From an uncultured Thermoleophilia bacterium (GTDB taxonomy: Bacteria > Actinomycetota > Thermoleophilia > UBA2241): 64,000 nt of DNA. The notes under the pieces were generated by a model that saw nothing but the letters and a program-made list of their open reading frames with translations, did no database searches and was not told where the DNA came from. The position numbers and the translations under genes are program-made. Shown piece by piece: positions 879-55,067 of this stretch. Within the stretch, counting starts at the first letter, position 1; each line of letters begins with the position of its first letter. The stretch covers positions 131,951 to 195,950 of the forward strand of contig CAVVGY010000010.1 in assembly GCA_963747935.1 (NCBI GenBank). Reading direction: 5' to 3'.

Positions 879-3149
879 TCAGGCCGGGACGGGCGCGGGC
901 GCCGGCCAGCACAGGCCGTACTCGTCGAGCTCCGCGTAGGTCACGCCGCCCAAGGACGGGATGAGGAGGGCGATCTCGTCCTCCCACACCGCCTTGGGGT
1001 AGCCGGCCTGCCACTCGTGGCCGAGCCGCTTGGCCACCTCGCGGAACGCCCACCAGCCGGGACGGGCGGCGCCGGCCGGGCGCTGGATCCGGCGCAGGCG
1101 GCTGATGCGCCGCTCGGCGTTGGTGAACGTGCCGTCCTCCTCGCCCCAGGCGACGGACGGCAGCACCACGTCGGCCAGCTCGGCCAGGTCTCCGCGCACG
1201 GCGCCCTGGACGATCACGAAGCCGGCGGCGTCGATGGCCGCGAGCACGTCGGCGGCGTCACCGAACGAAGCCGCCTCGTTGGCCCAGACCCAGGCGGTGG
1301 TGACGGCGCCGTCCTTAAGGCCGGAGAGGATCTCGCCGGTGGCGCGGCCGGGCTCGGCCGGCAGCGTGGCGACGCCCCAGGCGTCGGCCAGGCGCTGCCG
1401 GGCCTCCGCGTCCGCGACCAGGTCGCCGCCGGGCAGCAGGTCGGGCGCCACGCCCATACCCACGAGGCCCTGGACGTTGCCTGCGCCGAGCGGCAGCGCG
1501 ACGCTGCGGGCGCCGGCCAGGTCGTCGAGCAGCGACTGCAGCTTGACGACGGCTGCTCCGGTGCCGGCCAGGTCGTCGGTGGCGCCGAGCGTGGCGCACA
1601 CTACGGCCGGACGCACATCGACGAGCTTGGCGGCGATGGTGCGGATGGTGGCCGCGTCCACGCCGGAGTCCTCGGCGATGCGCTCCGGCAGCACCGCGGC
1701 CAGCATGGCCTCGAGCTCACGCTCGTGCGGCACCACGTCGCCGGCCTCGCGTCGCTCGTGCAACTCGTTGGCGAGCAGCACGGCGATGATGCCGTTGAGC
1801 ACCTCGGGGATCTGCGCCGGCTCGACCGTGACGCGCACCGCGGCGGCGTCGCCGAGGTCGCTGTGGCCGGCGTCGAGCACCATGAGGTGGGCGCCGTCGC
1901 GGACGGCGCGGCGCAGGGCCGTGCCGGCCACCGGGTGGTCGGCCACCTCGCCGTCGCCGACCACGAGGACGGCGCGGGCCTCCTCGAGCACCGTCAGGGC
2001 GCCGGAGGTGTAACACACGCCGGCGCCCGTCCCCGTGCTCGCGAGCGACACGTTCGAGGTCTGGGCGACGCGGTGGTCGATGTCGTTGGTGCCGAGCACG
2101 GCGCGGAAGAACTTCTGCGCCTGGTAGGCCTCCTCGTTGGTGCACACCGGCGCGATGAGGCCGGCCACTTCGCCGGGCGCTGCCGCGCCGAGCTTCTCGG
2201 CGACCAGATCGAGCGCTTCGTCCCAGCTCGCCTTGACGAGCTGCCCGTCCTTGCGCACCAGCGGCTCCTCGAGCCGGGCGCGGTCGTCCGGCTCCAGCAC
2301 CGCGAACCGGCCGCGCTTGCACAGGCGGCCGCGGTTGGGCGGCACGTCGCCGGCGCCGGTGACCTTGACCACCTCGCCGTCCTTGAGATGGACGACCGTC
2401 TGGCAGCCCATGCCGCAGTGCGGGCAGGTGGTGCGGATGCGCTGCAGCTCCCAGCTGCGGGCGATGCCCTTGGCCGTGCGCTCGGTGAGCGCCCCGACGG
2501 GGCAGACGTCCACGCACTGGCCGCAGAGCTCGCACTGCTCGAGGTCCGGCAGCGGGTACCAGTCCTTGCCGCCGGCGCGCTCCGCGCGCCGGCCGGAGGG
2601 ATGCGGCACCACGCCGTTGACCTGGATGGCGGTGCAGGCGGCCCAGCAGCGGCCGCAGAGGATGCACTTGGAGTAGTCGCGGATGACGTAGCTGTCTTCC
2701 GCGAACGGGAAGAGCTCGGCCGCCGGCATCTCCGTGGGCGGCTCGACCTGGTACTCGTAGGCGAGCCGGCTGAGCTCGCACTCGCCCAGGGCGTCACAGG
2801 TGATGCAGGTGTGACGCCCCGAGTTGATGAGCAGCTCGAGCGTGGACCGCCGCGAGTGCCGCACGCGGTCGCTCATGGTCTGGACGTCCATGCCCTCGGT
2901 GGCCGGCGTACTGCAGGCAGGCAGCAGCCTGCCCGCGCCGGCCACCTCGACCACGCAGAGGCGGCACACGTCACGGTGGCCCGCCTCGGGCAGGTAGCAG
3001 AGCGTCGGGATGGCGACGCCGTTGGCGCTCGCCACGTCCAGGATGGTCTGGCCGGGTTCGAAGCTCATGACCCGGCCGTCGACCGTGATCTGCGGCGCGG
3101 CCGTCACAGCTTCACTGTTCTCGGCGGGGGTGGTCGGTACGTCGGTCAT
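879..3149 (-). CDS. NuoG/FdhA-like molybdopterin-oxidoreductase-family Fe-S subunit (N-terminal 2Fe-2S, two 4Fe-4S ferredoxin motifs and a CPHCGMGC cluster motif)
   Basis: 756-aa ORF. Cysteine motifs seen: CYLPEAGHRDVCRLC, CILCGRCWAAC, CELCGQCVDVC and TTCPHCGMGC. Its ATG overlaps the stop codon of the upstream flavoprotein gene (ATGA). Confidence 0.75.
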   Translation of the reverse strand: MTDVPTTPAENSEAVTAAPQITVDGRVMSFEPGQTILDVASANGVAIPTLCYLPEAGHRDVCRLCVVEVAGAGRLLPACSTPATEGMDVQTMSDRVRHSRRSTLELLINSGRHTCITCDALGECELSRLAYEYQVEPPTEMPAAELFPFAEDSYVIRDYSKCILCGRCWAACTAIQVNGVVPHPSGRRAERAGGKDWYPLPDLEQCELCGQCVDVCPVGALTERTAKGIARSWELQRIRTTCPHCGMGCQTVVHLKDGEVVKVTGAGDVPPNRGRLCKRGRFAVLEPDDRARLEEPLVRKDGQLVKASWDEALDLVAEKLGAAAPGEVAGLIAPVCTNEEAYQAQKFFRAVLGTNDIDHRVAQTSNVSLASTGTGAGVCYTSGALTVLEEARAVLVVGDGEVADHPVAGTALRRAVRDGAHLMVLDAGHSDLGDAAAVRVTVEPAQIPEVLNGIIAVLLANELHERREAGDVVPHERELEAMLAAVLPERIAEDSGVDAATIRTIAAKLVDVRPAVVCATLGATDDLAGTGAAVVKLQSLLDDLAGARSVALPLGAGNVQGLVGMGVAPDLLPGGDLVADAEARQRLADAWGVATLPAEPGRATGEILSGLKDGAVTTAWVWANEAASFGDAADVLAAIDAAGFVIVQGAVRGDLAELADVVLPSVAWGEEDGTFTNAERRISRLRRIQRPAGAARPGWWAFREVAKRLGHEWQAGYPKAVWEDEIALLIPSLGGVTYAELDEYGLCWPAPAPVPA

Positions 3150-3150
3150 C

Positions 3151-5037
3151 TCAGACCACCCCTACCGCGATGCGGTAACAGCGCAGGCAGCGCTCGGCCT
3201 CGCGCCGCGCGTCGGCGGCGCTCACCGGCCCTTCGACCTCGTCGAAGCACTGGATGCGCACCTCCGGCGGCACGACCATGGGCCGCAGCTTCTCGGTGTT
3301 GCCGGTGAACGGCAGCGGCTGCTCGGCCTCCTTGCGCACGACCTCGAGCATCGCGTGCTCCAGGCGCACCTCCGGCGACGGGCCGACCGACTCTCCCTTG
3401 AGGAACTCGTTCATGGACTCGGCGGCGCGGCGTCCGGCGCCGAGGGCCGCGACGAGGCTGCTCGGCCCCGTGTAGCAGTCGCCGCCGCCGAACACGCGCG
3501 GGTCGGCGGACTGCATGGTGAGCGGGTCGACCTCCAGGGTCTTCCACTTGCTCACCTCGATGTGGCTCGGCACCAGCTGGTCGACGGAGCACACCTGGCC
3601 GATGGCCGGGACGATGCAGTCGCAGGGGATGACGAACTCGGAACCCTCGACCGGCTCGGGGCGGCGGCGCCCGGAGGCGTCGGGCTCCCCGAGCTGCATG
3701 CGCCTGCACTCGAGGCCCTTGACCACGCCGTCCTCGGCGATGATCTTCGTCGGCGCGACGAGAGTGACCATCTCGACGCCCTCCTCCTTGGCCTCGACGA
3801 TCTCGACCTGGTCGGCCGGCATCTCAGCCTCGGTGCGGCGGTACAGGAGCTTGACGTCGTCGAACCCGATGCGGATCGACGAACGGACGCAGTCCATGGC
3901 CACGTTGCCGCCGCCGATGACGAGCATCGTCTTGCCCTTGAGCGGCACGTTGCCGAAGGCGATCTCGCGCAGGAACTCCACGCCGGGCATGAAGCCCTGG
4001 TACCCGGCGTCCTCGCCCTCGCAGCCCATGCGCGCGGACTGGTGCGCGCCGACGGCGATGAACACGGCCTCGTAGCCCTGCTCGAACAGCTCTTCCATGG
4101 TCACGTCGACGCCGAAGCGGGTGTTGTACCTGATCTCGGCGCCGAGCGCCTGTACCCGGTCGATCTCGGCGCGCAGCACCTGGCGCGGCAGGCGGTAGTC
4201 GGGGATGCCGACGGCAGCCATGCCGCCGCCCTCGGGCAGAGCCTCGAGGATGGTGCTCTTGACGCCCTCGAGGCCGAGGTAGTAGGCGCAGGCCAGGCCG
4301 GCCGGCCCGGCGCCGATGATGGCGACCCGAGGCTTGCCCGGCAGCTCGCGCGGGACGATCTCGGCCTCGCTGTCGGCCACGAAGCGCTTGAGCGTGCGGA
4401 TGGCGACCGGCTCGTCGACGGAGCCGCGGCGGCAGGCGTCCTCGCAGGGACGCACGCACACGCGGCCGATGGTGGCCGGCATGGGGCAGCGCTTGCGCAC
4501 GGCCTCGGACGAGCGCTCGACCTCGTCGATGCGGAGCTGCTCCACATACGCCGGGATGTCCACGCCGGCCGGGCAGGCGGCCATGCACGGCGCCACCACC
4601 GTGCGAGCGTAGGTGCCGCGCGGGATCGGCTTGCGGGCGGCGACGGCGGCCTCGAAGGCCGCGCGGTTCTGCTCGAGCGACTCGAGCACCGCGTACCCGC
4701 CGGAGCGGCCGAGGTCGCAGCGCGAAGCCTCGGCGACGTGCTGCGCGAGCTCGTAGGCGCGCTGGAGGCGCTCCTCCGTGCCCACGCCGTCACAGATCTC
4801 CTCGAGGATGTCGCCGACCTCGTGCATGCCGATGCGACAGGGGAAGCACTGACCGCAGCACTCCTGCACGGTCTGGCGGGCGTACTCGCGGGTGAGGTCG
4901 ACGATGTCGACGGAGTCGTCCCACACGGCCATGCCGCCCCAGCCCATGACGGCACGGAAGGTGCCGTGGAGCTCGGCGGGCAGGAGCGATGGGTCGGTGG
5001 TCCAGGCACCCGCCACGGCGACGGCGGCGTCGGTCAT
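3151..5037 (-). CDS. NADH-binding Fe-S flavoprotein: a NuoF-like C-terminal 4Fe-4S region fused to a GltD-like FAD/NAD(P) oxidoreductase (diaphorase/beta subunit)
   Basis: In-frame ATG at 5037 (MTDAAVAVAG…). Motifs seen: CGQCFPCRIG (NuoF-type 4Fe-4S) and dinucleotide-binding VAIIGAGPAGLACAYYL and MLVIGGGNVAMDC. The longer ORF-track ORF extends upstream into a repeat element and is rejected. Confidence 0.75.
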   Translation of the reverse strand: MTDAAVAVAGAWTTDPSLLPAELHGTFRAVMGWGGMAVWDDSVDIVDLTREYARQTVQECCGQCFPCRIGMHEVGDILEEICDGVGTEERLQRAYELAQHVAEASRCDLGRSGGYAVLESLEQNRAAFEAAVAARKPIPRGTYARTVVAPCMAACPAGVDIPAYVEQLRIDEVERSSEAVRKRCPMPATIGRVCVRPCEDACRRGSVDEPVAIRTLKRFVADSEAEIVPRELPGKPRVAIIGAGPAGLACAYYLGLEGVKSTILEALPEGGGMAAVGIPDYRLPRQVLRAEIDRVQALGAEIRYNTRFGVDVTMEELFEQGYEAVFIAVGAHQSARMGCEGEDAGYQGFMPGVEFLREIAFGNVPLKGKTMLVIGGGNVAMDCVRSSIRIGFDDVKLLYRRTEAEMPADQVEIVEAKEEGVEMVTLVAPTKIIAEDGVVKGLECRRMQLGEPDASGRRRPEPVEGSEFVIPCDCIVPAIGQVCSVDQLVPSHIEVSKWKTLEVDPLTMQSADPRVFGGGDCYTGPSSLVAALGAGRRAAESMNEFLKGESVGPSPEVRLEHAMLEVVRKEAEQPLPFTGNTEKLRPMVVPPEVRIQCFDEVEGPVSAADARREAERCLRCYRIAVGVV

Positions 5038-6690: not shown

Positions 6691-7143
6691 GTGCGCAGGT
6701 GGATCACGCCGTTCGTGCTCACGGTCGCGGCGCTGGCGCTCGTGGCGCTGCCGCTCGCGAGCGCCGGCTGTGGGTCCTCCGGGGGCGACAAGGCCCAGCC
6801 GACGTGGCAGAAGGTGGTGAGCAGCGAGATCTCCGGCAAGGCCCCGGTCAAGCTCAACCTCGGCACGCACCAGCTCGGCACCAAGGTGCGCCTCGCCTGG
6901 GACCTCACCGGTCCACCGTCGCCGCCGGTGATCCTGACGCTCCGCCTCATCAACGCCGACTACGGCACGGGATTCGGCTACTCCGCTGATCCCACCCAGC
7001 AGGGCTTCCAGACCCAGACCGAGAACGCGATGACGATCGGGCCTCTCAAACCGGGGAACTTCACCATCCACTTCAGCCAGCGGTTCCCGCCGGCCGAAGG
7101 CCCCGGCTATGACGGGACGATCACCGTCTACACCCTGAAGTAG
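6691..7143 (+). CDS. Small lipoprotein (signal peptide plus lipobox LASAGC)
   Basis: GTG start preceded by GAGGAGGAG. The N-terminal hydrophobic stretch is VLTVAALALVALPLASAGC. Confidence 0.5.
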   Translation: MRRWITPFVLTVAALALVALPLASAGCGSSGGDKAQPTWQKVVSSEISGKAPVKLNLGTHQLGTKVRLAWDLTGPPSPPVILTLRLINADYGTGFGYSADPTQQGFQTQTENAMTIGPLKPGNFTIHFSQRFPPAEGPGYDGTITVYTLK

Positions 7144-7171
7144 GCGCACGCCGGAGAGAGGAGCGGGGATC

Positions 7172-9560
7172 ATGGGGTTCACGTTCGGGCCGCGACGCGG
7201 CGTCTACATCGACATCTCGGAGGTCATGCCGCCCGAGGGGCCGCTGACGCCGGCCGAGCTCGCCCACTTCGAGGCCTTCGACCTGCTCTACCGCTCGCTC
7301 TGCGCCCTCCTCTTCAACTACGTGCCCACGTCGGGCCACCCCGGCGGCTCGATCTCGTCGGGGCGCGCGGTCGCGGCGGCGCTCTTCGACTCCATGGACT
7401 ACGAGCTCGGCGACCCGGACCGGCCGGACGCCGACCTGATCAGCTACGCGGCCGGCCACAAGGCCATGGGCCTGTACGCGATGTGGGCGCTGCGCGACGA
7501 GGTGGCGGCGGTGGCCGACCCGGCGCTGCTGCCCGGCAAGCAGGAGCAGCGCCTGCGCCTGGAGGACCTCCTCGGGTTCAGGCGCAACCCCATCACGGCG
7601 ACGCCGCTGTTCCGCGAGTTCGGCGCCCGAGCGCTCGACGGGCACCCGACGCCCGCGACCCCGTTCGTCAAGCTCGCGACCGGCGCCTCCGGCGTCGGCG
7701 TGGCCAGCTCGATCGGCCTCGGCATCGGCGCGGCCGACAGGTACGGAGCGGACGCGCCGCGAGTGCACATCATGGAGGGCGAGGGCGGCCTGACCCCCGG
7801 CCGCGTGAGCGAAGCTCTCGCCGCGGCCGGCACCGCCTCCCTCGCCAACGTGATCGTCCACCTCGACTGGAACCAGGCGAGCATCGATTCCGACCGCGTG
7901 TGTCGCGAGGGCGCCATCCCGGGCGACTACGTGCAGTGGGACCCGCTCGAGCTCTTCTACCTGCACGACTGGAACGTGGTGGACGTCCCCGACGGGCACG
8001 ACTTCCAGCAGGTCGTCGCGGCGCAGCGGCACGCGCTCGCGCTGCACACCGGCCAGCCGACGGCCATCGTCTACCACACGCAGAAGGGCTGGCGGTACGG
8101 CGTGGAGGGCAAGGCCAGCCACGGCGCCGGGCACAAGCTGTGCTCCGAGGGCTTCTACGAGGCGATCTCGGAGCTGACGCGCACCACCGGAGCCGAGGTG
8201 GAGTGGCCGACCTGCGACCCGGCGGACCGGGCCTGCGGCGGCCCGGACGGCGCGACCGTCAGGGAGCGCTGCTTCTGGACGGCGCTGCAGGCGGTCCGCG
8301 CGCAGGTGCACCAGGACCGGCCTACGGCGGCCGCGCTGGCGGAGCGGCTCGCGGCCGCACGCGACCGCCTCGAGGCGCGCGACAGGGCCCCCAGGCCCGG
8401 CGCTCCGCGCGTCGACGACGCCTACGAGCTCGCCGAGGCGACGGCGGCCGTCGCGCCGGCGCCGGAGGCCACTCCGGAGGAGCTGAGGCTCGAGCCGGGC
8501 ACCTTCACCACGCTCCGCGGTGAGCTCGGCCACACCCTGCACCACCTGCAGACGGTCAGCGGCGGCGCGTTCCTGGTGGCCGCCGCCGACCTCGCGGGCT
8601 CCACCAGCGTGAACACCGTCGCCGGCGGGTTCCCCGGCGGCTTCTGGAACGCGCACGCCAACATCGACGCGCGCCTGCTCTCGGTCGGAGGCATCTGCGA
8701 GGACGCCATCGCCGGGGTGCTCAGTGGCATCGCCGCCTACGGCCACGACCTCGGGGTCGGCTCGTCCTACGGCGCGTTCATGGCGCCGCTGGGGCACATC
8801 GCCGCGCGCCTGCACGCCATCGGCTCCCAGGCGCGGGCCTCGGTCACCGGCGAACCCTACAAGCCCCTGTTCCTCGTCTGCGCCCACGCCGGGCTCAAGA
8901 CCGGCGAGGACGGGCCGACACACGCCGACCCGCAGCCGCTACAGCTGCTCCAGGAGGACTTCCCCAGGGGCACGGCCGTCTCGCTGGTGCCCTGGGAGCC
9001 GCAGGAGGTCTGGACGCTGACCGCCGCCGCGCTGGCGCAGCGCCCCGCGGTGATCTCCGCGTTCGTCACCCGGCCGAACGAGCAGGTGCTGGACCGGGCC
9101 GGCCCTGGGTCTGGCGCCGGCCGAGGCCGCCGTCTCGGGCGTGTACCGGCTCCGCGACTGCGAGATCCCCGACGTGACCGTCGTCCTGCAGGAGAGCGCC
9201 GTGACCTACGCGTTCGTGCAGGACGCGCTGCCGATCCTGGAGGCAAAGGGTGTGGACGCGCTGGTCTACTACGTCGCCAGCGCCGAGCTCTTCGACCTGC
9301 TGCCCGAGGACGAACGGCGCGCGATCCTGCCGGAGGCGCGCGCCTCCGAAGCCATCGGTGTCACCGGCTTCACCCTGCCGACGCTCTACCGCTGGGTGAC
9401 CAGCGACGCCGGCCGGGCCGCGAGCCTGTTCCCGTTCAAGAAGGGACACTACCTGGGCAGCGGGCCGGGCGAGGTGGTGCTCGCCGAGGCCGGCCTCGAC
9501 GGCGCAAGCCAGGCGGCGGCGATCCTGCGCTACTGCGACGCCCGCGCCGCCGCCCGCTGA
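7172..9560 (+). CDS. Transketolase-like ThDP enzyme with insertions and an apparent +1 frameshift near 9100
   Basis: N-terminal GHPGGSIS ThDP motif. The transketolase C-terminal domain (VYRLRDC…VLQESA…) continues in another frame from about 9105. The 1020-aa ORF-track ORF is a composite with the downstream gene. Confidence 0.6.
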
Positions 9561-45542: not shown

Positions 45543-46655
45543 TCAGGCGCAGCGCACCACGCCGCGCGCCCAGAGGCAGTCGCCGCAGGTGGGGTGCGGG
45601 TTGCCGAGACAGTCCTCTTCGTTGGTCTCGGCCAGTTCGCACCCGCAGTCGGTGCAGGGCGGGAAGTCGAAGCGCCGGACCCGGTCGCGGAACGCGACGT
45701 ACTCCGGCCCGGCCCAGACGGCGGCCAGAGACTCGGCCGGGAGCCTGCCCACCTCCCAGCGCACGATGCGCTTCTCGCGCCCGCGCACGTAGCAGGTGTA
45801 CGTGTGCAGCAGGGGCGGGCACGGGCTCACGCCGCCGTGCCAGGCCACCGCGCAGGCGTCCGCGTGCACGAACGGGCAGCGGGCGCGCGTGTCCTCCGGG
45901 TCGGCGCCGTGGAACGAGACCGGACCCGAGCGGGTCAGCGCCTTGCCCAGCGAGGCTCCGAGCTCCTCGTCCCAGTCGAACGCCGGCAGCTGCCAGCGGG
46001 CGCCGGCGGTGGTGTGGGCGCCGCTGGACGTGGACCCCTGGCGGTCGTAGAGCGTCTGGTCGAGCAGGTCCTCGGTGTAGGCGAGCACGTTGCTGACGAT
46101 GATGAACGTCGCGCCCAGTTGCGCGGCGAGCCGGCGCAGGCCGGGCAGCTCGCCGATGTTGGAGCGCATCGCCACGAACTCGACCCCGATGCGCACCGCG
46201 GAGCTGTAGTTGGGTCCGCGGTGGTCGTGCAGGCGGCGCACGTTCTCCACCACACGGGCCAGTGAGGCGCCGGAACGGACGCGGCCGAAGGCCTCGGCGG
46301 AGGCGCCGTCGATGCTCACGACGAGCTGGTCGAGCCCCGCCTCGAGCAGCGCTGCCGCCATCGCGTCGTCCAGCAGCAGCGCGTTGGTCGTGACCTCGGT
46401 CCGCAGCCCGCGCTCCTTGGCGAGCCGCACCATGTCCGGGAACCTGGGGTGCAGCAGCGGCTCCCCCAGCCCCATGAACGCGACCGTGCCGGGCCCGCCT
46501 TCGTCCGCCGGCCCGGCCACTCCGGCCACCACGGCCTCGAACGTCGCCCACTCCATGAAGCCCTCGGGCTCGTCCCACGCGTGGCGGATGCAGGTGGCGC
46601 AGGCGAGGTTGCAGGCGTTCGTCGGCTCGACGTAGACCTTGGCCGGCGCGGTCAC
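45543..46655 (-). CDS. Radical SAM enzyme with a C-terminal Cys-rich SPASM/twitch-like auxiliary-cluster domain
   Basis: CNLACATC (CxxxCxxC) at residues 15-22. The C-terminal cysteines are CPFVHADACAVAWHGGVSPC…CYVRG…CTDCGC…CGDCLWARGVVRC. Last gene of the arsP operon. Confidence 0.8.
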   Translation of the reverse strand: MTAPAKVYVEPTNACNLACATCIRHAWDEPEGFMEWATFEAVVAGVAGPADEGGPGTVAFMGLGEPLLHPRFPDMVRLAKERGLRTEVTTNALLLDDAMAAALLEAGLDQLVVSIDGASAEAFGRVRSGASLARVVENVRRLHDHRGPNYSSAVRIGVEFVAMRSNIGELPGLRRLAAQLGATFIIVSNVLAYTEDLLDQTLYDRQGSTSSGAHTTAGARWQLPAFDWDEELGASLGKALTRSGPVSFHGADPEDTRARCPFVHADACAVAWHGGVSPCPPLLHTYTCYVRGREKRIVRWEVGRLPAESLAAVWAGPEYVAFRDRVRRFDFPPCTDCGCELAETNEEDCLGNPHPTCGDCLWARGVVRCA

Positions 46656-47461
46656 AGGCCCATACCTGCGCAGATCGCGAGAAGCGCTTCGCGGAGGTCC
46701 TCACGGCCTCCCCCGAAGACCGGCGCGCAGTCTTGTGGATCCGCGTCACCGCGCCAGACGGCCCAGGCGAAAGCGTTGCAGGTCGCCTCGCCGCACTCCC
46801 CGCAGTTGCTGCCCGGCAGCCGCTTGAGGATCTCGAGCGCCGGCGGCCGCCGGCGCGCCTCGAACGAGGGCTCGATCTGCTCACGCCGCGCCCAGACCTC
46901 GTTCACCTGGCTGCGCAGCCGCTCGAGGCTGGCCCAGGCGTCGACGATGTCGTCGGCCTTGGCGATGCCCACCCTGTCGCGGAACAGCGACACCATCCGG
47001 TGGCCGTCCATGTAGGTGAGCACGGGGAGCTTGGCGGTGTACGACGCCTGGTGCAGCTCGGCGTTCAGATAGGGGAGCGCCTCGGCCGCGTCCCCCTCGA
47101 GGTGGGCGATGAGCCGCAGCTTCTCGGGGTCTGCCACGCAGGGCGCAAGGACGACGATGGCCATGCCGGGGATGAGCTCTTCCGGCGCGGGGATGAGCCC
47201 GTCCGCCGCGGAGGCGGGCGACTGCTCCGGCACGCTCCGCCGGGATGGTCTGTGCTCCACCCAGCCCGCGCCGACGAGCCCCGCGCCGCCGTTGTCCAGA
47301 TACTCGGCGCGCGCCTCCGCCGTCAGGACGAGGGCCGGGCACCCGACGCGCTCGTAGCCGGGGTCTGGAGAGACGACTTCGTACCCGATGCCGAGGCGGT
47401 CGAGAAGCTGCTGCGCCTTGGCCAGCTCACGCCGGTCCGTGAATGTCGTCAGCCAGTCCAC
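46652..47461 (-). CDS. Two-domain protein: N-terminal DUF3343-like domain (putative S/Se-carrier-like) plus a C-terminal CFeSP-type Fe-S cluster domain (LPGSNCGECGEATCNAFA)
   Basis: N-terminus FTDRRELAKAQQLLDRLGIGYEVVSPDPGYERVGCPALVL; C-terminus …RLPGSNCGECGEATCNAFAWAV…. Confidence 0.45.
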   Translation of the reverse strand: MDWLTTFTDRRELAKAQQLLDRLGIGYEVVSPDPGYERVGCPALVLTAEARAEYLDNGGAGLVGAGWVEHRPSRRSVPEQSPASAADGLIPAPEELIPGMAIVVLAPCVADPEKLRLIAHLEGDAAEALPYLNAELHQASYTAKLPVLTYMDGHRMVSLFRDRVGIAKADDIVDAWASLERLRSQVNEVWARREQIEPSFEARRRPPALEILKRLPGSNCGECGEATCNAFAWAVWRGDADPQDCAPVFGGGREDLREALLAICAGMGL

Positions 47462-47464
47462 GGC

Positions 47465-47701
47465 TCAGCTCGACGCCTGCGCCCTCATCCGGCGATAGTC
47501 CTCGAGCGACGGGAAGCTGATCGCCCCCTTCTCACAGAGGCCGGCGCAGTGCGAGCAGCCGGCGATGCAGGCGTCCTGGTGGACCACCTCGACCCTGTCG
47601 CCGGAGAAGCCGTACACGCCTTGCTGGCAGAACTCGAGGCAGGTGCGACAGCCGTCGCACAGCTCACTCTCGATCGTCGGGCCCCACACGAGCGTGCTCA
47701 T
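47465..47701 (-). CDS. Small 4Fe-4S dicluster ferredoxin-like protein
   Basis: 78 aa; CDGCRTCLEFC and CIAGCSHCAGLC. Confidence 0.6.
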   Translation of the reverse strand: MSTLVWGPTIESELCDGCRTCLEFCQQGVYGFSGDRVEVVHQDACIAGCSHCAGLCEKGAISFPSLEDYRRMRAQASS

Positions 47702-47716
47702 CGGAATCCCCCTCCT

Positions 47717-48343
47717 CTAGCAGCAGCAGGCGCCTGCCGCCGGGCGCTTGTTGGCGAAGTAGCGCGCCAGGTTCTCGGGCAACTCGACGAGCGGCTCCGG
47801 AGTGACGGGCGGCCGCTCGTCGACCTTGAGCAGCGCGTCCATGAGCGCCTCGACGAGAAGCGGTAGCGGCGCGGCGCTGTAGACCTCGCCCCGGTAGTGC
47901 CACTCGCGGCAGTCGACGCTCACGTCGCCGTCGGTCAGGTCGCCGCAAGACTCGCACTCGGACTCACGGATGTCCTGGTCGATGTCACGGCCGTTGACGC
48001 GGATGGTGGGCGAGGAGAGCAGCGCGCGCGCCTTGGCCTCGTCCGCGCTCTGGACGACCGTCTCGCGGTACGTGAGGCCGACGTCGAGAGCCTCGGCCGC
48101 CGCGGCGACGATCTCGATGGCCTCACGCAACTGCTCGCCGGTGGGCACGCAGCGCGCGCACGTGTCGAGGTCGATGACGAGCAACTCGATGTTGAGCCGC
48201 CGCCTCTGCGCGCTCGTACGCGCGGAGGGGGCGGCCGCGGCCTCAGCCGCGGGGGCGCCGCAGCAGCACGGCGAGGCGGAGGCGGACTGGTCGCCGCAGC
48301 AGGAGGACGCTGCGGGGCCGGAGGTCGTCGGGGCGTCAGTCAT
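47717..48343 (-). CDS. DUF2703-like thioredoxin-fold protein with Cys-cluster termini (N-terminal SSCCGDQSASASPCCCG, C-terminal AGACCC); candidate metalloid-binding protein
   Basis: Core LNIELLVIDLDTCARCVPTGEQL. There are 10 Cys in vicinal pairs or triplets at the two termini. Confidence 0.45.
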   Translation of the reverse strand: MTDAPTTSGPAASSCCGDQSASASPCCCGAPAAEAAAAPSARTSAQRRRLNIELLVIDLDTCARCVPTGEQLREAIEIVAAAAEALDVGLTYRETVVQSADEAKARALLSSPTIRVNGRDIDQDIRESECESCGDLTDGDVSVDCREWHYRGEVYSAAPLPLLVEALMDALLKVDERPPVTPEPLVELPENLARYFANKRPAAGACCC

Positions 48344-48393: not shown

Positions 48394-49409
48394 TCAGCCG
48401 AGCACCAGGTTGAAGAGGTAGCCGACGAACACGATGCCGAGGCCCACGACGCCGAGGAACGTGAAGATGAGCGGCCACTTCAGCACCTTCTTGAGGATGA
48501 TCGTCTCGGGCAGCGAGAGAGCGATGACCGCCATCATGAAGGCGAGCACGGTGCCGAGGGCGGCGCCCTTCTCCAGCAGCGCCTCCACGATGGGGATGAT
48601 GCCCGCGGCGTTCGAGTACATGGGGATGCCGAGCAGGACCGCGAGCGGCACGCTCCACCAGGTGCCGGCGCCCATGATGCCGGCCATGAAGTCCTGCGGC
48701 ACGTAACCGTGGATGACGGCGCCGACGGCGATGCCCGCGAGCACCCAGGGCCAGACCCTGCCGACGATGTCCTTGACCGCCTGCCAAGCGTACTCACGCG
48801 GGCCGCCCAGGAGAGCTGCTCGCTCGCGGCGGCGGCCTCGCCCATCCTGATCTCGAGTACCCAGTCCTCGATGTAGCGCTCCATCTTCAGGCGCCCGATC
48901 ACCCAGCCGGCCACCATGGCGATGAGGAGGCCGGTCACGAGGTAGAGGGCGGCGACCTCCCAGCCGAAGAGCCCGTAGAGCAGCACCAGGGCGATCTCGT
49001 TGACCATGGGCGCGGCGATGAGGAACGAGAAGGTCACGCCGAGCGGGATGCCGGCCTCCACGAAGCCGATGAAGAGGGGGACCGCCGAGCAACTGCAGAA
49101 CGGTGTCACGATGCCGAGGCTCGCGGCCATCACGTTGCCGGTGGCCTCGCGCCGGCCGTGCAGGAGGGCGCGGGTGCGCTCCGGGCTGAAGAACGAGCGC
49201 ACCACACCGACGCCGAAGACCACCAGGGTGAGCAGAAGGAGCACCTTCACGCTGTCGTAGACGAAGAACTCGAGGGCGGATGCCCAACGGGTGTCCGGCA
49301 GCTGCAGGACGCCGTGGAACAGCCACACCGTGAAGGGCAGCCAGAAGTGGTAGACGACCGCCCAGAGGCCGACCCCGAGGACCAGGCGCAGCCACAGCGG
49401 CAGGCCCAT
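48394..49409 (-). CDS. arsP: ArsP-type (DUF318) permease, putative organoarsenical efflux; apparent frameshift near 48810
   Basis: The TPFCSCSAVP motif matches ArsP. The N-terminal half is in the 48534..49409 frame and the C-terminal half in the 48394..49587 frame. Confidence 0.65.
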
Positions 49410-49656
49410 CCAGAGGCGGACCGCGGCGGGCGCCAGCCGCGGCGGCGGCCTCGTCCGCGGGGGCGACGGGCGCGCCGGTCGAGCAGGCGCAGGCGGGCAG
49501 GGTCGACGTTGCTCTCCCTGCAGTCGCCGGCTCCCCCACTTCAGTGCTGGGGGCGACCTCGATGACCTGCTCGCTCATGTTGCTCAACTCCCCGCGCTCG
49601 TCGGACCCGCGAAGCCCGTGATCAGGGGTGTTGCAGCCAGCTCACGCTGCAGTCGC

Positions 49657-50343
49657 TCATAGTCGTAGGGGACGCGCACGAACTCGACGAAGTCCGGTGT
49701 CGCCGAGCCGCGCCGGGTCGACGACGGCGTAGCAGACGCGCCAGTCGCCGTCCTTGGGGCGGCCGCCGCTGCCGACGTTGACGAAGACCGTCTCGCCGAC
49801 CGGGCGCGCGTAGGGCACGTGCGTGTGCCCGAAGAAGATGGCCGGGTAGGGGTACTCATCGGCCATGCGCGCCATGGCCTTCTCCGGCCGGTCCTCGAAG
49901 AGGTACTCGTTGATGCGCCGTGGGCTGCCGTGGACGGCGAGCAGGTCGCCTGCGGGCGTGGCGAGCGTGAAGTGGTCCTCGAGCGTGCGCAGATACGCCT
50001 TGACCTCGGCGGTCACCACCTCCTGCGTCCACTCCAACGACACGGCCCCCTCGGCGCGCTGCTCGTCGGTCTTGTAGACGCAGCCGCAGTCGCCGGTCTC
50101 GAAGCCGATGCCCTGGTCGTAGTTGCCCATGAGGCTGGGGATGCCGCGGTCGCGGACGAGCAGTGCGACCTCGTTGGGCGAAGGGCCGTAGCCGACCAGA
50201 TCGCCTAGAGAGATCGTCTGCGGCACGCTTCGTTGTTCGATGTCGGCGAGGATGGCCTCGAGCCCGGGCAGGTTGCCGTGCACGTCGCTGAAGAGGGCGA
50301 ACGGGGTCTCGAGCGTGAGCGTCCTCAACTGCGGTCCTTTCAT
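49657..50343 (-). CDS. Calcineurin-like metallophosphoesterase
   Basis: FSDVHGN, GDLVGYG and GNYD motifs. Confidence 0.8.
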   Translation of the reverse strand: MKGPQLRTLTLETPFALFSDVHGNLPGLEAILADIEQRSVPQTISLGDLVGYGPSPNEVALLVRDRGIPSLMGNYDQGIGFETGDCGCVYKTDEQRAEGAVSLEWTQEVVTAEVKAYLRTLEDHFTLATPAGDLLAVHGSPRRINEYLFEDRPEKAMARMADEYPYPAIFFGHTHVPYARPVGETVFVNVGSGGRPKDGDWRVCYAVVDPARLGDTGLRRVRARPLRL

Positions 50344-50364: not shown

Positions 50365-50402
50365 CTCTTGACCATAAACCTACGTCGATGTAAGGTCAAG
50401 AG
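50365..50402. promoter_or_regulatory. Perfect 9-bp inverted repeat CTCTTGACC-N20-GGTCAAGAG in the AT-rich divergent promoter region upstream of acr3; candidate ArsR operator
   Basis: It lies between the divergently transcribed metallophosphoesterase gene (start 50343) and acr3 (start 50442). It contains a TTGACC -35-like hexamer. Confidence 0.4.
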
Positions 50403-50441: not shown

Positions 50442-51566
50442 ATGGCTGAAGGCACGATGAGGAGATTGTCCTTCCTCGACCGCTACCTCACCCTCTGGAT
50501 CTTCCTCGCCATGGCCGTCGGCGTGGCCGTCGGCTGGGCGTTCGTCAGCGTGCCGGAGTTCATCGACAGGTGGACGGTGGGCACGACCAACATCCCCATC
50601 GCCATCGGCCTCATCATCATGATGTATCCGCCGCTGGCGAAGGTGCGCTACGAGGAGCTCGGCGACGTCTTCAAGGACTACAGGATCCTCGGCCTCAGCC
50701 TCGTGCAGAACTGGCTCATCGGCCCATTCGTGATGTTCTTCCTGGCGATCATCTTCCTGCACAACTACCCGGAGTACATGGTCGGGCTCATCATGATGGG
50801 CCTCGCGCGCTGCATCGCCATGGTGATCGTCTGGAACCAGCTGGCGAAGGGCGACACCGAGTACGCCGCAGGCCTCGTCGCCTTCAACAGCATCTTCCAG
50901 GTGCTGTTCTACAGCGTGTTCGCCTGGATCTTCGTCACCAAGCTGCCGCCGCTCTTCGGGCTCGAGGGCGCGACGGTGGACGTCTCCATCGGCCAGATCG
51001 CCAAGAGCGTCGCCATCTACCTCGGCATCCCGTTCGTGGCCGGCATGATCACGCGCTACGTCGGCCTGAAGGTCAAAGGGCGGGAGTGGTACGAGCAGAA
51101 GTTCATCCCGCGCATCAGCCCGCTCACGCTCATCGCCCTGCTGTTCACGATCTTCGTGATGTTCAGCCTCAAGGGCGACCTCATCGTGCAGTTGCCGCTC
51201 GACGTCGTGCGCATCGCCATCCCGCTCGCCATCTACTTCGCGATCATGTTCTTCGTGAGCTTCTACATGGGCCGGCGCATCGGCGCCGACTACTCCAAGA
51301 CCGCGACCCTGAGCTTCACCGCGGCGAGCAACAACTTCGAGCTGGCCATCGCGGTCGCCATCGCCACCTTCGGCCTGAACTCGGGCGAGGCGTTCGCCAC
51401 CGTGATCGGCCCGCTGGTCGAGGTGCCGGTGCTGATCGGCCTCGTGAGCGTCTCCCTGTGGTTCGGGCGCAAGTACTGGGGCGTCACGGATGAACCGGTG
51501 CCGGCCGCCGTGGCGGCGGGGTGCGACGAGGTGGGCTGCGACCCGATTCGCGGAAGGGAGACCTGA
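50442..51566 (+). CDS. acr3: Arsenite efflux transporter ACR3
   Basis: 374 aa with conserved Acr3 architecture and motifs ([13 protein letters not shown]…, [11 protein letters not shown]). Confidence 0.9.
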
Positions 51567-51943
51567 TGGCGATGCAAGCTGTCCGCAAGGGGACCATCGA
51601 AGACTACGTGCCGCTGTTCAAGGCACTGTGCAACTCCACCAGGGCGCAGATCATGGAGTTCCTTCTCAGCGGCGAACGCTGCGTGTGCGAGATGACCGGT
51701 CCGCTGGACCTGAGCCAGCCGCTGGTCTCGCACCACCTGGGCCTGCTCCGCGACGCCGGGCTGGTGAACATGCGCGACGAGGGCGCCCGCACGTACTACT
51801 CGATCAACGAGGAGCGGTTCGACGCGGATCTCCAGGGGTTCGTCGCCCATGTGGATCGTCTGCGCAACACGCCGCGGCCGGCGCTCGACCCGGCGTCGGC
51901 CTGCGCCACACCGGTCGTCAGGCCCGGCAAGAAGTCCGCCTAG
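51566..51943 (+). CDS. arsR: ArsR/SmtB-family metalloregulator
   Basis: The ATG overlaps the acr3 stop (TGATG). Metal-binding ERCVCEM motif and HTH LSQPLVSHHLGLLRDAGLV. Confidence 0.8.
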   Translation: MAMQAVRKGTIEDYVPLFKALCNSTRAQIMEFLLSGERCVCEMTGPLDLSQPLVSHHLGLLRDAGLVNMRDEGARTYYSINEERFDADLQGFVAHVDRLRNTPRPALDPASACATPVVRPGKKSA

Positions 51944-51969: not shown

Positions 51970-52224
51970 ATGAAGCTCGAGATCCTCGGCTCCGGCTGCG
52001 CCAACTGCAAGAAGCTTGAGGCGATCACGAACGAGGCGGTCGCCGACCTCGCCATCGGCGACGTAGAGGTCGTGAAGGTCACCGACATGAAGGACATCAT
52101 GGGGTACGGCATCATGTCGACGCCGGGCCTCGTCATCGACGGCAAGGTCGTCTCCAGCGGTCGCGTGCCGTCCAAGGCCGAGGTAGCCTCGATGATCACG
52201 ACCGAGCTGGCCGCCCGGGGATGA
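51970..52224 (+). CDS. Small thioredoxin-fold redox-active disulfide protein (TM0996/MTH895-like, GCANC motif)
   Basis: 84 aa; MKLEILGSGCANCKKLE…. Confidence 0.6.
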   Translation: MKLEILGSGCANCKKLEAITNEAVADLAIGDVEVVKVTDMKDIMGYGIMSTPGLVIDGKVVSSGRVPSKAEVASMITTELAARG

Positions 52225-53369: not shown

Positions 53370-53814
53370 TCAGCCGGCGGAGTCGGGCGGTACGTTGATG
53401 ATCACGCCGAAGGCGCGCAGCGTGTCCGCCACCTCGCTGTTCACCGAGTAGAACGTCCATTTGCCGCGGGTCTCCTCGACGACCAGACCCGCGTCCTTGA
53501 GCACGCGCAGGTGGTACGACGCCTTGGACTGCGCGAGCCCGAACTGCTCCTGGAACTCGCAGACGCAGAGCCCCGAGGGGTCGCCCGCGCCGGGCACACC
53601 CGCGCTCCGCGGGGTCGATGAGGCCGCAGCAGCCGCGGCCCTGCGTCATGACGTCCAGCATGCCGAGGCGGATGGGGTCGGAGAGCGCCTTCGCGACCCT
53701 GGCGAGGCGCGCCAGGGTCTCGGGGTCCGTGCGCGTGCAGCAGACGGCCTCCGCCACCGGCGGCGCGCACGCCGCACTCTTCTTGTCCGTTCTTGGTGGC
53801 CATGACCGGACCAT
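53370..53814 (-). CDS. Second ArsR-family regulator with extra N-terminal Cys pairs (…CC…, CCG…, LCVCEF); apparent frameshift near 53600
   Basis: ATG at 53814 (MVRSWPP…AVCCTRTDPETLARLARVAKALSDPIRLGMLDV…CCGLIDP). The C-terminal half, in another frame, is LCVCEFQEQFGLAQSKASYHLRVLKDAGLV. Confidence 0.6.
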
Positions 53815-53913: not shown

Positions 53914-54761
53914 ATGAGTGAGACCAAGGACCAGGAACTCAAAGGTCAGATCCGCGACCACTACGCCGAGCGCGCCGTGGCGGCCAAGGACGCCACGGCG
54001 CCGGTGAGCTGCTGCGGTCCGTCGAGCACGAGCAGTTGCTGCGGCGGCCAGGCCGTCGAGGCGCAGGACGAGTTCGCGCGCGGCCTCTACGACGTCTCCG
54101 AGACCGGCGACCTCCCCGACGGCGCCGTGCTCGCCAGCCTCGGTTGCGGCAACCCGACGGCGCTCGCCGACCTGCAGCGCCGGCGAGGTCGTGCTCGACC
54201 TCGGCAGCGGCGGCGGCATCGACGTCCTGCTGTCCGCCAGGCGCGTCGGCCCCACCGGCAAGGCCTACGGCCTCGACATGACCGACGAGATGCTCGCCCT
54301 GGCCCGCGAGAACCAGGCCAAGGCCGGCGTGACCAACGTCGAGTTCCTCAAGGGTGAGATCGAGGACATCCCGCTGCCGGACGACTCGGTGGACGTGATC
54401 ATCAGCAACTGCGTCATCAACCTGTCGGTCGACAAGGACAAGGTGCTGGCGGAGGCCTATCGGGTGCTCAAGCCCGGCGGGCGGTTCGCGGTCTCGGACA
54501 TCGTGTTCCAGGGCGACGTGAGCCTCATCCCCGAGCACATCTTGCGCAGCATCGAGTCGTGGTCCGGCTGCGTCGCCGGAGCGCTCGAGGAGCAGGACTA
54601 CCTGGACAAGCTGCGGCGCGCCGGCTTCGCCGACGCCGCGATCGAGGTGACGCAGGTGTACGACGAGCGTGCCGGACGGATGCGGCGTCGACCTGAGCGA
54701 GATCCCGGACGGCATCCGCGTGGTGAGCGGGTTCGTGCGCGCGACCAAGCCGGCGAGCTGA
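53914..54761 (+). CDS. arsM: Arsenite S-adenosylmethionine methyltransferase ArsM; two apparent frameshifts (about 54180 and 54665)
   Basis: N-terminal [15 protein letters not shown] Cys pairs; SAM-binding [12 protein letters not shown]; C-terminus …[28 protein letters not shown]. It spans three frames. Confidence 0.7.
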
Positions 54762-55067
54762 CCGGACGCGCAGCGGAGGAACGTGGAGTCCTGAGCGGAC
54801 TGGAGGAGTCATGGAACGCATCATCGGCATGGAGCATCAGGGCGGCTGGGTCCGCGACGAGCAGATGAAGGCGGAGCGGCTGCGCCACCGCCGGGCGGCG
54901 GACGAGCGCTGCGAGCGCGCCGGGCTGCTGCGGCAGTGCCGGCCGGTCGAGCCCGGCCGGGAGAGCCGCCGGACGGCCTGACGGCGAGCGCAGTCCGGAG
55001 CGGACGCAGGACGGGGGGCGGGACCGAGCGAGCAGGGTCCCGCCCCCCGTTTGCGTCGTCGGAGCCG

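Follow-up and report, generated by a model that had tools for sequence, protein, structure and literature searches.

The stretch of DNA considered here (the window) comprises 64,000 nucleotides from an uncultured Thermoleophilia bacterium (GenBank assembly GCA_963747935.1, contig CAVVGY010000010.1, positions 131,951 to 195,950), and encodes, on its minus strand at positions 47717..48343, a member of the DUF2703 protein family that lies among genes for arsenic resistance (ars). Comparative analyses of this protein, its homologues and their genomic surroundings firmly support two conclusions: (i) that DUF2703 proteins as a family are functionally linked to systems of arsenic resistance, and above all to ArsP_1 permeases; and (ii) that the cysteine arms of the protein, together with a core containing five cysteines, are under selection.

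The DUF2703 gene begins with an ATG codon that is preceded by a GAAGGAG ribosome-binding site (read from the sequence), and specifies a cytoplasmic protein of 208 amino acids without a signal peptide. An earlier reading of the DNA, made from its letters alone (the sequence-only reading), had proposed a DUF2703-like core for this protein; a search with the PF10865 hidden Markov model (HMM) bore this out, returning a score of 76.1 bits against a cut-off of 23.6 across residues 51-166 (profile positions 2-119 of 120), and the family motifs SSPTIRxNG, CxxCGD and DCR.W were all found in the protein along with a CxxC. The sequence strings quoted by that reading match the protein exactly (SSCCGDQSASASPCCCG at residues 13-29, LVIDLDTCARCVPTG at residues 55-69 and AGACCC at residues 203-208), but its count of ten cysteines in terminal CC/CCC runs must be corrected to eight, with a further five in the core and 13 in total. 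A model of the DF family (seleno)protein (NF049942) matched residues 71-129 only, at 41.6 bits and below its cut-off of 70. Homologues are numerous: 703 were recovered from a search of 5.8 billion proteins, and when 1.84 billion representatives were searched exhaustively with an HMM, 648 DUF2703 clusters were obtained at E <=1e-3 and 413 at E <=1e-10. The family is present in eight or more phyla, the bacteria concerned being mostly anaerobes.

The gene belongs to a tightly packed minus-strand operon that encodes, in order, a metallophosphoesterase, ArsP, DUF2703, a ferredoxin, an iron-sulfur (Fe-S) protein and a radical S-adenosylmethionine (SAM) enzyme. The metallophosphoesterase (49657..50343; Pfam Metallophos_2) is the first gene, a position 5' of ArsP_1 that it also holds at loci L001, L004-L008 and L084-L086 of the genome comparison described below. 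Immediately upstream of DUF2703 lies an ArsP_1-family permease with the motif TPFCSCS (48394..49587), the two halves of which were matched by Pfam ArsP_1 as two open reading frames; its matches to the SO_0444 Cu/Zn exporter and SaoE models were below cut-offs only. On the other side, the reading frame of a 78-residue 2x[4Fe-4S] ferredoxin (47465..47701; Fer4 families, with a weak HgcB-like match) begins 15 nucleotides past the DUF2703 stop codon, and is followed by a gene for a 269-residue protein (46652..47461) with a C-terminal PF04060 Fe-S domain. Only that 33-residue domain was matched in Pfam or NCBIfam, neither of which recognised the N-terminal 200 residues; homologues of the protein occur in the equivalent cassettes of L085 and L007, with a homologue of its N-terminal part in the same position in L085. 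The operon ends with a gene (45543..46655) for a radical SAM/SPASM enzyme (Pfam Radical_SAM and SPASM), for which the closest models, named 'tungsten cofactor oxidoreductase maturase' and 'Geobacter metalloenzyme maturase', were both below cut-off (TIGR04317, 287 bits against 380; TIGR04311, 254 bits against 400). Such a gene had been placed downstream of DUF2703 by the sequence-only reading, and is indeed present there, but two genes separate it from DUF2703.

Divergently, on the plus strand, the island continues with acr3 (50442-51566; TIGR00832, 462 bits), an arsR with a CVC motif (51521-51943; HTH_metalloreg, 86 bits) and an MTH895/ArsE-type Thioredoxin_3 gene, trx3 (51970-52224; TIGR00412, 99.6 bits), followed by genes for a thioredoxin and CcdA, and then by an ArsM-type methyltransferase (53914..54868, plus strand, frameshifted near 54185) and a second arsR (53370-53800, minus strand, split between frames near 53600). 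Within the divergent intergenic region between acr3 and the metallophosphoesterase, a repeat search identified a 19+19 nucleotide inverted repeat (50365..50402; arms CTCTTGACCATAAACCTAC and GTCGATGTAAGGTCAAGAG) that overlaps the -35-like TTGACC of a minus-strand promoter-like site found by a consensus-level promoter scan, and that is a candidate operator for ArsR or another repressor. No tblastn match to ArsA, ArsD or an LMW-PTP ArsC was obtained within the window, nor was any match to HgcA.

Three ars genes within 6.5 kb (arsP, arsM and the second arsR) carry indels, whereas its ten remaining genes leave the island otherwise intact. These indels are single-base, no homopolymer run of at least 6 bases occurs between 45.5 and 55 kb, and split genes are also present at related loci of metagenome-assembled genomes (MAGs); the frameshifts could be assembly errors or real pseudogenes. 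For arsP, the intact 405-residue ArsP_1 orthologue of L001 aligns across three frames in tblastn. The sequence-only reading was silent on the arsP frameshifts, as it was on the ferredoxin link and on the five invariant cysteines of the DUF2703 core.

Terminal cysteine arms and a thioredoxin-like core

The N-terminal arm of the window protein (residues 1-47; 48203..48343, minus strand, as for all features of the protein) carries the pair C15-C16 (48296-48301) and the run C26-C27-C28 (48260-48268), while the C-terminal arm (residues 198-208, NKRPAAGACCC; 47720..47752) ends in C206-C207-C208 (47720-47728) directly before the stop codon at 47717-47719. Among the 26 closest homologues, all with 68% identity or more, C15, C16, C26 and C27 are 100% conserved, C207 is 96% conserved and C208 100%; non-cysteine residues of the N-terminal tail average 45% identity, and C28, the third cysteine of its 'CCC', is retained in just 8%. 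The sequence-only reading had made its proposal depend upon conservation of the terminal clusters, and its idea that these arms matter is supported by the 96-100% conservation of both N-terminal CC pairs and of the C-terminal CC. A wrong start codon, which would render the N-terminal tail spurious, was considered and ruled out: the stretch MSDPQTT...SSCCGDQ is kept in both length and sequence among homologues.

Similar arms recur far beyond these close relatives. Nearly all of the best 120 homologues end in ...NLxRYFxNKK....CC(C/S/G), and most of them possess an N-terminal extension with CC, CGC or CGCGC motifs. Among 150 DUF2703 representatives clustered at 50% identity, 90 top ones could be parsed for tails, and CC or CxC motifs were found in the N- and/or C-terminal tails of 83 of them; still other family members bear long C-terminal tails, such as CCEPSEKxxCCG...CGC. 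The arms are therefore plastic in position and yet retained, which argues that the selected feature is the possession of vicinal-cysteine arms as such, rather than any fixed motif. By inspection, the DUF2703 proteins of five Planctomycetota loci (L061, L065, L076, L078 and L080) have N-termini that resemble lipoprotein signal peptides (for example MRSLIVLTLFSLGGCAAPP) and long tails such as CCEPSxKxxCCG...CGC; some members of the family may be exported.

Between the arms lies a core of residues 48-197 (47753..48202). An AlphaFold2 (AF2) model of the protein (mean predicted local distance difference test, pLDDT, of 83) predicts residues 48-200 mostly at pLDDT >90, with the tails at ~50 and thus disordered. 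The predicted secondary structure is b-a-b-a-b-b with an inserted hairpin: strand 1 (residues 48-56) leads to C62-A-R-C65 (48149-48160), and helix 1 (65-85) has this C62-x-x-C65 motif at its N-terminus, after which come strand 2 and helix 2; a Ser-Pro-Thr sequence precedes strand 3, at the usual cis-Pro position; and strand 4 (125-130) is followed by an insert with C130-E-S-C133 (47945-47956) and a hairpin that starts from C145 (47909-47911), and then by helix 3. The last core helix (190-197; ENLARYF, or ENLxRYF in the family) is conserved and stands directly before the CC tail. Across 84 sequences, down to ~35% identity, C62, C65, C130, C133 and C145 are invariant, and S111-P112-T113, R115, N117, G118, D120, E127, R146, W148 and P159 are invariant or nearly so; two conserved core motifs, but not the CxxC motifs, had served as the search patterns for loci. 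In a thioredoxin-fold topology, strand 4 ends and the inserted hairpin begins on the same sheet edge as the CxxC, so that the five core cysteines are probably clustered. They could in principle be ligands of an Fe-S cluster or of zinc, and no match of the window protein to an Fe-S family was found in Pfam and further HMM scans.

The topology, the CxxC at the N-terminus of helix 1 and the proline before strand 3 are those of the thioredoxin-like fold (clan CL0172), as the sequence-only reading had suggested. The same assignment of DUF2703 to the thioredoxin clan was published by Pawlowski et al. in 2010 (PMC3091736), with MTH895 (1ilo) as the top HHpred hit and an ArsD fusion noted. In our own searches, Foldseek with the AF2 model gave weak matches to thioredoxin folds (best probability 0.91, to 3hz4; none at E <=1e-3), and a profile search of the PDB found no related solved structure (best E 0.6, to the MJ0307 thioredoxin). 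A profile-profile comparison with hhalign was clearer, and aligned the DUF2703 core to an MTH895/ArsE profile with a probability of 90% and an E of 1.6e-6, the CxxC and SPT motifs being in register, which further substantiates the thioredoxin fold. That relationship was significant only with profiles on both sides: single sequences of the window's DUF2703 and its own Trx3 gave an insignificant alignment, and the Thioredoxin_3 and TIGR00412 models did not match the window's DUF2703 protein.

Membership of DUF2703 in the ArsD family was considered and rejected, after HMM, profile-profile and motif tests all proved negative. ArsD models (PF06953 and NF033727) did not match the window protein even at E up to 10; hhalign of DUF2703 against ArsD gave probabilities of 2% (one ArsD sequence) and 0.3% (a profile of 4 sequences); and the Cys12-Cys13-Cys18 motif of ArsD (CCxTGxCG) is not in the window protein, the equivalent site of which reads TCARCVPTG. 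A profile of 23 MTH895/ArsE-type sequences from the loci described below nevertheless aligned to a small ArsD profile over its C-terminal half (96.6%, E 6e-10), and ArsD, ArsE/MTH895 and DUF2703 thus form a chain of remote homology among thioredoxin-fold ars accessory families. From its sequence, the window protein would be best described as a thioredoxin-fold accessory of an ars operon that is ArsD-like in its logic and outside the ArsD family.

Gene neighbourhoods and fusions of DUF2703

A scan of 185,579 species genomes located relatives of the window protein in 172 stretches, of which 80 loci were kept; window proteins were mapped onto these loci, and neighbouring open reading frames were clustered de novo. 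The nearest relatives belong to Thermoleophilia MAGs (75-81% identity), and further DUF2703 loci were found in Desulfobacterales, Syntrophales, Spirochaetota, Synergistaceae, Moorella, Pelotomaculum, Planctomycetota and others. Shares of neighbours were computed for genes within 3 kb at the 48 loci flanked on each side by 3 kb or more of sequence. An ars-related gene of any kind was present at 69% of these, and ArsP_1 at 48% (directly adjacent and on the same strand at 31%); ACR3, ArsC or ArsM was found at 40%, ArsR at 40%, an MTH895/ArsE-type thioredoxin at 29% and ArsC at 15%. Chance adjacency within 3 kb for a gene of one or two copies is estimated at well below 1%. Co-occurrence with arsP in other genomes, which the sequence-only reading had put forward as a check, was therefore found, and the arsenic context that it had claimed is upheld, both by the operon with ArsP_1 and the divergent acr3-arsR of the window and by relatives in many phyla that adjoin ArsP_1, ACR3, ArsR, ArsC and ArsM. 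Because ArsC stands near only 15% of the loci, the association of DUF2703 is with transport rather than with arsenate reduction.

The neighbourhoods also bear upon whether the ligand is arsenic in particular, since the protein might instead be a general buffer or chaperone for soft metals (Cu, Zn, Cd or Hg) with no arsenic specificity. CDF transporters lie within ~4.5 kb at 9 of 83 loci; the ArsP_1 family includes the SO_0444 Cu/Zn exporters and SaoE, although the window permease scored below those cut-offs; and CC tails are typical of the Hg-handling proteins HgcA and HgcB, both of which are encoded at the related locus L001. The arsenic-specific ACR3, ArsC or ArsM genes near 40% of the well-flanked loci, the CVC As(III) motif of the local arsR, and fusion partners that comprise ArsD and ArsM-type modules and none of the HMA or MerP type all argue in the other direction, and make the general soft-metal function doubtful.

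A different type of neighbour is the sigma factor SigZ, which is encoded immediately upstream of DUF2703 and on the same strand at 25% of well-flanked loci, mostly those of more distant homologues (SigZ-linked loci are L012, L018, L038, L056, L057, L060, L061, L064, L065, L068, L070-L072, L074, L076-L078 and L080-L082). The SigZ genes score above NCBIfam cut-offs, carry a C-terminal cysteine motif of their own, and often overlap DUF2703; we know of no SigZ regulon. This pairing, taken with fusions of DUF2703 to an ArsR helix-turn-helix (HTH) domain (P0283) and to a PadR-like N-terminus (L050), and with ArsR or XRE genes directly upstream at several loci, raises the idea that DUF2703 senses thiophilic stress and modulates SigZ, ArsR, PadR or XRE as a regulatory partner. 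Adjacency to a regulator is equally expected of a regulated effector, however, and the window gene sits inside an operon of transporter and enzyme genes with no regulator adjacent; in addition, the lipoprotein-type signal peptides apparent by inspection in some SigZ-linked members are unlike a cytoplasmic anti-sigma factor. A sensory role is accordingly regarded as quite improbable.

The sequence-only reading had also offered DUF2703 as a substrate of the radical SAM/SPASM enzyme. With the enzyme as a maturase, the cysteine tails would be cross-linked or otherwise modified, much as QhpC is by QhpD. SPASM enzymes often modify cysteine-rich peptides, the two genes share an operon in the window, and in L001, L004, L006 and L007 they are near one another in the same orientation. 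These four are nonetheless the only ones among 83 DUF2703 loci with a radical SAM gene nearby, and all are close Thermoleophilia relatives; equivalent cysteine arms are conserved in lineages without the enzyme, and its orthologues (63-76% identity) are found in the DUF2703-free ars islands L084, L085 and L086, which comprise metallophosphoesterase, ArsP_1, small ferredoxin and acr3-arsR-trx3 genes. The existence of such cassettes without DUF2703 makes DUF2703 unlikely as an obligatory substrate of the enzyme, and the proposal as a whole is very hard to sustain. The conserved Thermoleophilia cassette therefore consists of metallophosphoesterase, ArsP_1, an optional Fe-S protein, ferredoxin and radical SAM enzyme, with DUF2703 as an optional insert. 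The uncharacterised radical SAM enzyme embedded in these arsenic islands may merit a separate study.

A Pfam scan of the 150 DUF2703 representatives revealed fusions that point to a similar set of partners as do the neighbourhoods. ArsD is fused to DUF2703 in three of the 150, in both domain orders (P0340, P0344 and P0345), and the ArsD moiety retains the CCxTGxCG motif in all three. Ferredoxin fusions number two to three (including P0344 and P0311) and ArsR-HTH fusions two (including P0283), with single fusions to a class I methyltransferase (P0341), to the putative redox domain C_GCAxxG_C_C (P0251) and to others; tandem DUF2703 domains were also found, and the PadR-like N-terminus mentioned above belongs to the DUF2703 gene of L050 at 1465-2415 (plus strand). 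In particular, P0344 is a triple fusion of ferredoxin, DUF2703 and ArsD that is represented by six sequences from several samples. Its ArsD part scores 114.7 bits against an NCBIfam equivalog cut-off of 90, its ferredoxin part is 39% identical to the 78-residue ferredoxin of the window (E 2e-11), and its gene takes the place of arsD in an arsR-acr3-[fusion]-arsA-arsC operon that is carried by a conjugative element.

A further module appears to be shared with ArsM. The N-terminus of the window's ArsM, encoded 6 kb away, has a twin-CC style (...SCCG...PCCG...) like that of the DUF2703 arm, and an HMM built from five ArsM N-termini matched the N-terminal tails of DUF2703 homologues with up to 41.8 bits; 26 of 103 real tails scored above 11 bits, against a maximum of 10.6 bits among 516 shuffled tails.

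Proposed function and its alternatives

We tentatively favour a reading in which the window protein is a redox-gated carrier of arsenic thiols that serves an exporter, as a cytoplasmic component of the ars regulon. Vicinal cysteines are used for arsenic by both ArsD and ArsR. The flexible CC arms would capture trivalent arsenic, as As(III) or methylarsenite, in the form of thiolates, and would transfer it to, or retain it at, the clustered cysteines of the core; from there the protein would deliver the arsenic species to the ArsP_1 exporter encoded next to it, at the CSC motif of that permease, whereas in other organisms the recipient would be ArsD/ArsA. A thioredoxin-type CxxC, supplied by the adjacent ferredoxin, would keep the arms reduced or trigger release. 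The logic would be that of an ArsD-like metallochaperone built upon a different thioredoxin-fold family and equipped with MerA-like swinging arms. It is established that ArsD binds As(III) and hands it over to ArsA, and that ArsP exports MAs(III) (PMC6205960).

The leading alternative is a thiol redox relay driven by ferredoxin, in which the CxxC, possibly with an Fe-S cluster on C130, C133 and C145, would take electrons from ferredoxin and pass them via the vicinal-cysteine C-terminal tail to a substrate, so that the tail would act as a redox shuttle like the SCCS tail of the thioredoxin reductase of insects. The substrates might be disulfides of ArsC or ArsM, or else As(V) or pentavalent organoarsenicals, of which the trivalent product would be exported by ArsP_1 or ACR3. 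The canonical thioredoxin position of the CxxC, the invariance of the SPT motif and the remote homology to the MTH895/ArsE family with the CxxC in register are all consistent with such a relay, as are three invariant arginines (R64, R115 and R146) that could hold an oxyanion. So, too, are the ferredoxin gene that adjoins DUF2703 in the window and its relatives, the ferredoxin fusions P0344 and P0311, the fusion with a putative redox domain, and the finding of no arsC in the window or in Thermoleophilia relatives; an oxidoreductase or thioredoxin role has moreover been proposed already (PMC3091736, PMC6514093). Yet a ferredoxin follows DUF2703 only in Thermoleophilia relatives (L001, L004, L006 and L007, plus L008) and ferredoxin fusions are rare; the ferredoxin of the window may serve the radical SAM enzyme, as in the DUF2703-free L084 and L085; and the repeated CC motifs at either terminus suggest the capture of a ligand over a single redox shuttle. 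It is this multiplicity of CC repeats, together with a linkage to permease genes that exceeds the linkage to ArsC (48% against 15% of well-flanked loci), that favours a carrier over the relay, which we consider rather unlikely but the most serious of the alternatives.

Several observations nonetheless weigh against the carrier. An invariant proline at the cis-Pro position beside a CxxC is typical of redox sites and not of metal sites, and the ferredoxin link fits electron transfer at least as well as it fits a carrier. The clustering of the core cysteines, to which captured arsenic would pass, is argued from fold topology. The N-terminal arm is wholly missing in ~10-15% of close homologues, and many distant homologues have N-terminal arms of two to four CC/CCC repeats without a C-terminal CC, so that the presence of arms varies among homologues and no single arm is essential; the window's own N-terminal tail, at 1.9 bits, does not match the ArsM N-terminal HMM. 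Some relatives adjoin CDF transporters, SO_0444-like Cu/Zn transporters or SigZ and not ars genes, from which it follows that the ligand may not always be arsenic. Finally, the frame of the very arsP gene that the carrier would serve in the window is broken twice by single-base frameshifts, near 48792 and near 49435.

An extension of the carrier reading, which is speculative and which we hold to be improbable in its full form, would make DUF2703 a second, ArsD-independent class of arsenic metallochaperone that serves secondary permeases (ArsP_1 and ACR3) in anaerobes and is powered by ferredoxin: the arms would capture, the five-cysteine redox centre would reduce pentavalent or thiol-bound species, and the trivalent product would be passed to the exporter. 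By analogy, this would apply the capture, reduce and release scheme of MerA to arsenic, and could include the activity of a methylarsenate reductase, an enzyme that to our knowledge has not been identified so far.

The detoxification of arsenic by anaerobes is important in paddy soils, in aquifers and in the gut, and depends upon exporters such as ArsP_1, for which accessory proteins are unknown; DUF2703 is a strong candidate for such an accessory, as its neighbourhoods and fusions link it to ArsP_1, ArsD, ArsR, ArsM-type modules and ferredoxin. If arsenic is indeed carried or reduced by the protein, then a chaperone or redox step would be added to the ars pathway, the small thioredoxin-like genes frequently found beside arsP would be explained, and three small genes that can be expressed in E. 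coli would provide a system in which to test it easily; if it is neither carried nor reduced, a well-conserved member of an uncharacterised family remains.

Relation to known arsenic and mercury proteins

Certain aspects of the system have been published previously, namely the family, its thioredoxin fold and an ArsD fusion (2010) and an arsenate-induced Rhodococcus member (2019). The searchable literature yielded no description of the cysteine arms as a family hallmark, of the five invariant core cysteines, of the systematic pairing with ArsP_1, of the ferredoxin link (by adjacency and fusion), of the N-terminal module shared with ArsM or of the pairing with SigZ, and a literature search returned nothing relevant on a radical SAM enzyme in ars operons or on an ArsP chaperone. 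The Rhodococcus member is found in the ars cluster of R. aetherivorans BCP1, arranged as arsR-acr3-arsC2-arsC3-DUF2703-arsO, where its gene was induced by As(V) (<10-fold) and a thioredoxin role was proposed (PMC6514093). It is likened to the window protein through that published description, by its Pfam family and its place in an ars cluster; the description differs in that it gives only a CXXC motif and makes no mention of cysteine arms, ArsP_1 or ferredoxin.

Among arsenic proteins, ArsD resembles DUF2703 in its thioredoxin fold, in cysteines at the b1-a1 junction, and in being encoded in ars operons beside the exporter that it serves, as well as in being found fused to DUF2703. ArsD also has vicinal cysteine pairs in its C-terminal tail (GCCGGNTSCC), which are dispensable. 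The two differ in that similarity between their cores is undetectable by sequence or profile; in that DUF2703 has CxRC where ArsD has CCxxGxC, and adds three invariant cysteines in an inserted hairpin as well as an N-terminal arm; and in that the DUF2703 gene of the window adjoins ArsP_1 and a ferredoxin rather than ArsA, no arsA being present in the window. The MTH895/ArsE family (PF13192, TIGR00412) is a remote homologue of DUF2703 and another habitual neighbour of ArsP_1 and ArsR, with a copy in the same island, but its members are of ~80 residues and possess the CxxC only, whereas DUF2703 is twice as long and has a 30-residue cysteine-bearing insertion, a C-terminal helix (PENLxRYF) and cysteine arms.

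Disordered terminal vicinal cysteines like those of DUF2703 are also found in proteins that handle mercury, including the C-terminal cysteine pair of MerA, the CC-COOH terminus of HgcB, the N-terminal CC/CU of HgcA, and SaoC. Such tails have been interpreted as arms for the capture and hand-off of thiophilic metals (10.1101/2022.07.06.499078). The mercury proteins differ from DUF2703 in their core and catalytic domains, and the context of DUF2703 in the window consists of arsenic genes and not of mer or hgc genes.

Two loci of the comparison carry similar cysteine pairs in other proteins. In L029, from a deltaproteobacterial MAG, the ArsP_1 gene directly upstream of DUF2703 (6854-7921, plus strand) specifies a permease with a central loop that holds three CC pairs (EASCCAA...AACCSSG...SSCCSVN), which echo the arms of the neighbouring DUF2703 protein. 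In L001, from a Thermoleophilia MAG, genes for HgcA (404 bits against a cut-off of 275, with an NVWCAAGK cap helix) and HgcB (111 bits against 99), at 2596-4109 on the minus strand, are immediate neighbours of trx3-arsR-acr3 within one island, and the N-terminal tail of this HgcA contains five CC pairs, a repeat that is similar in style to the arms of DUF2703.

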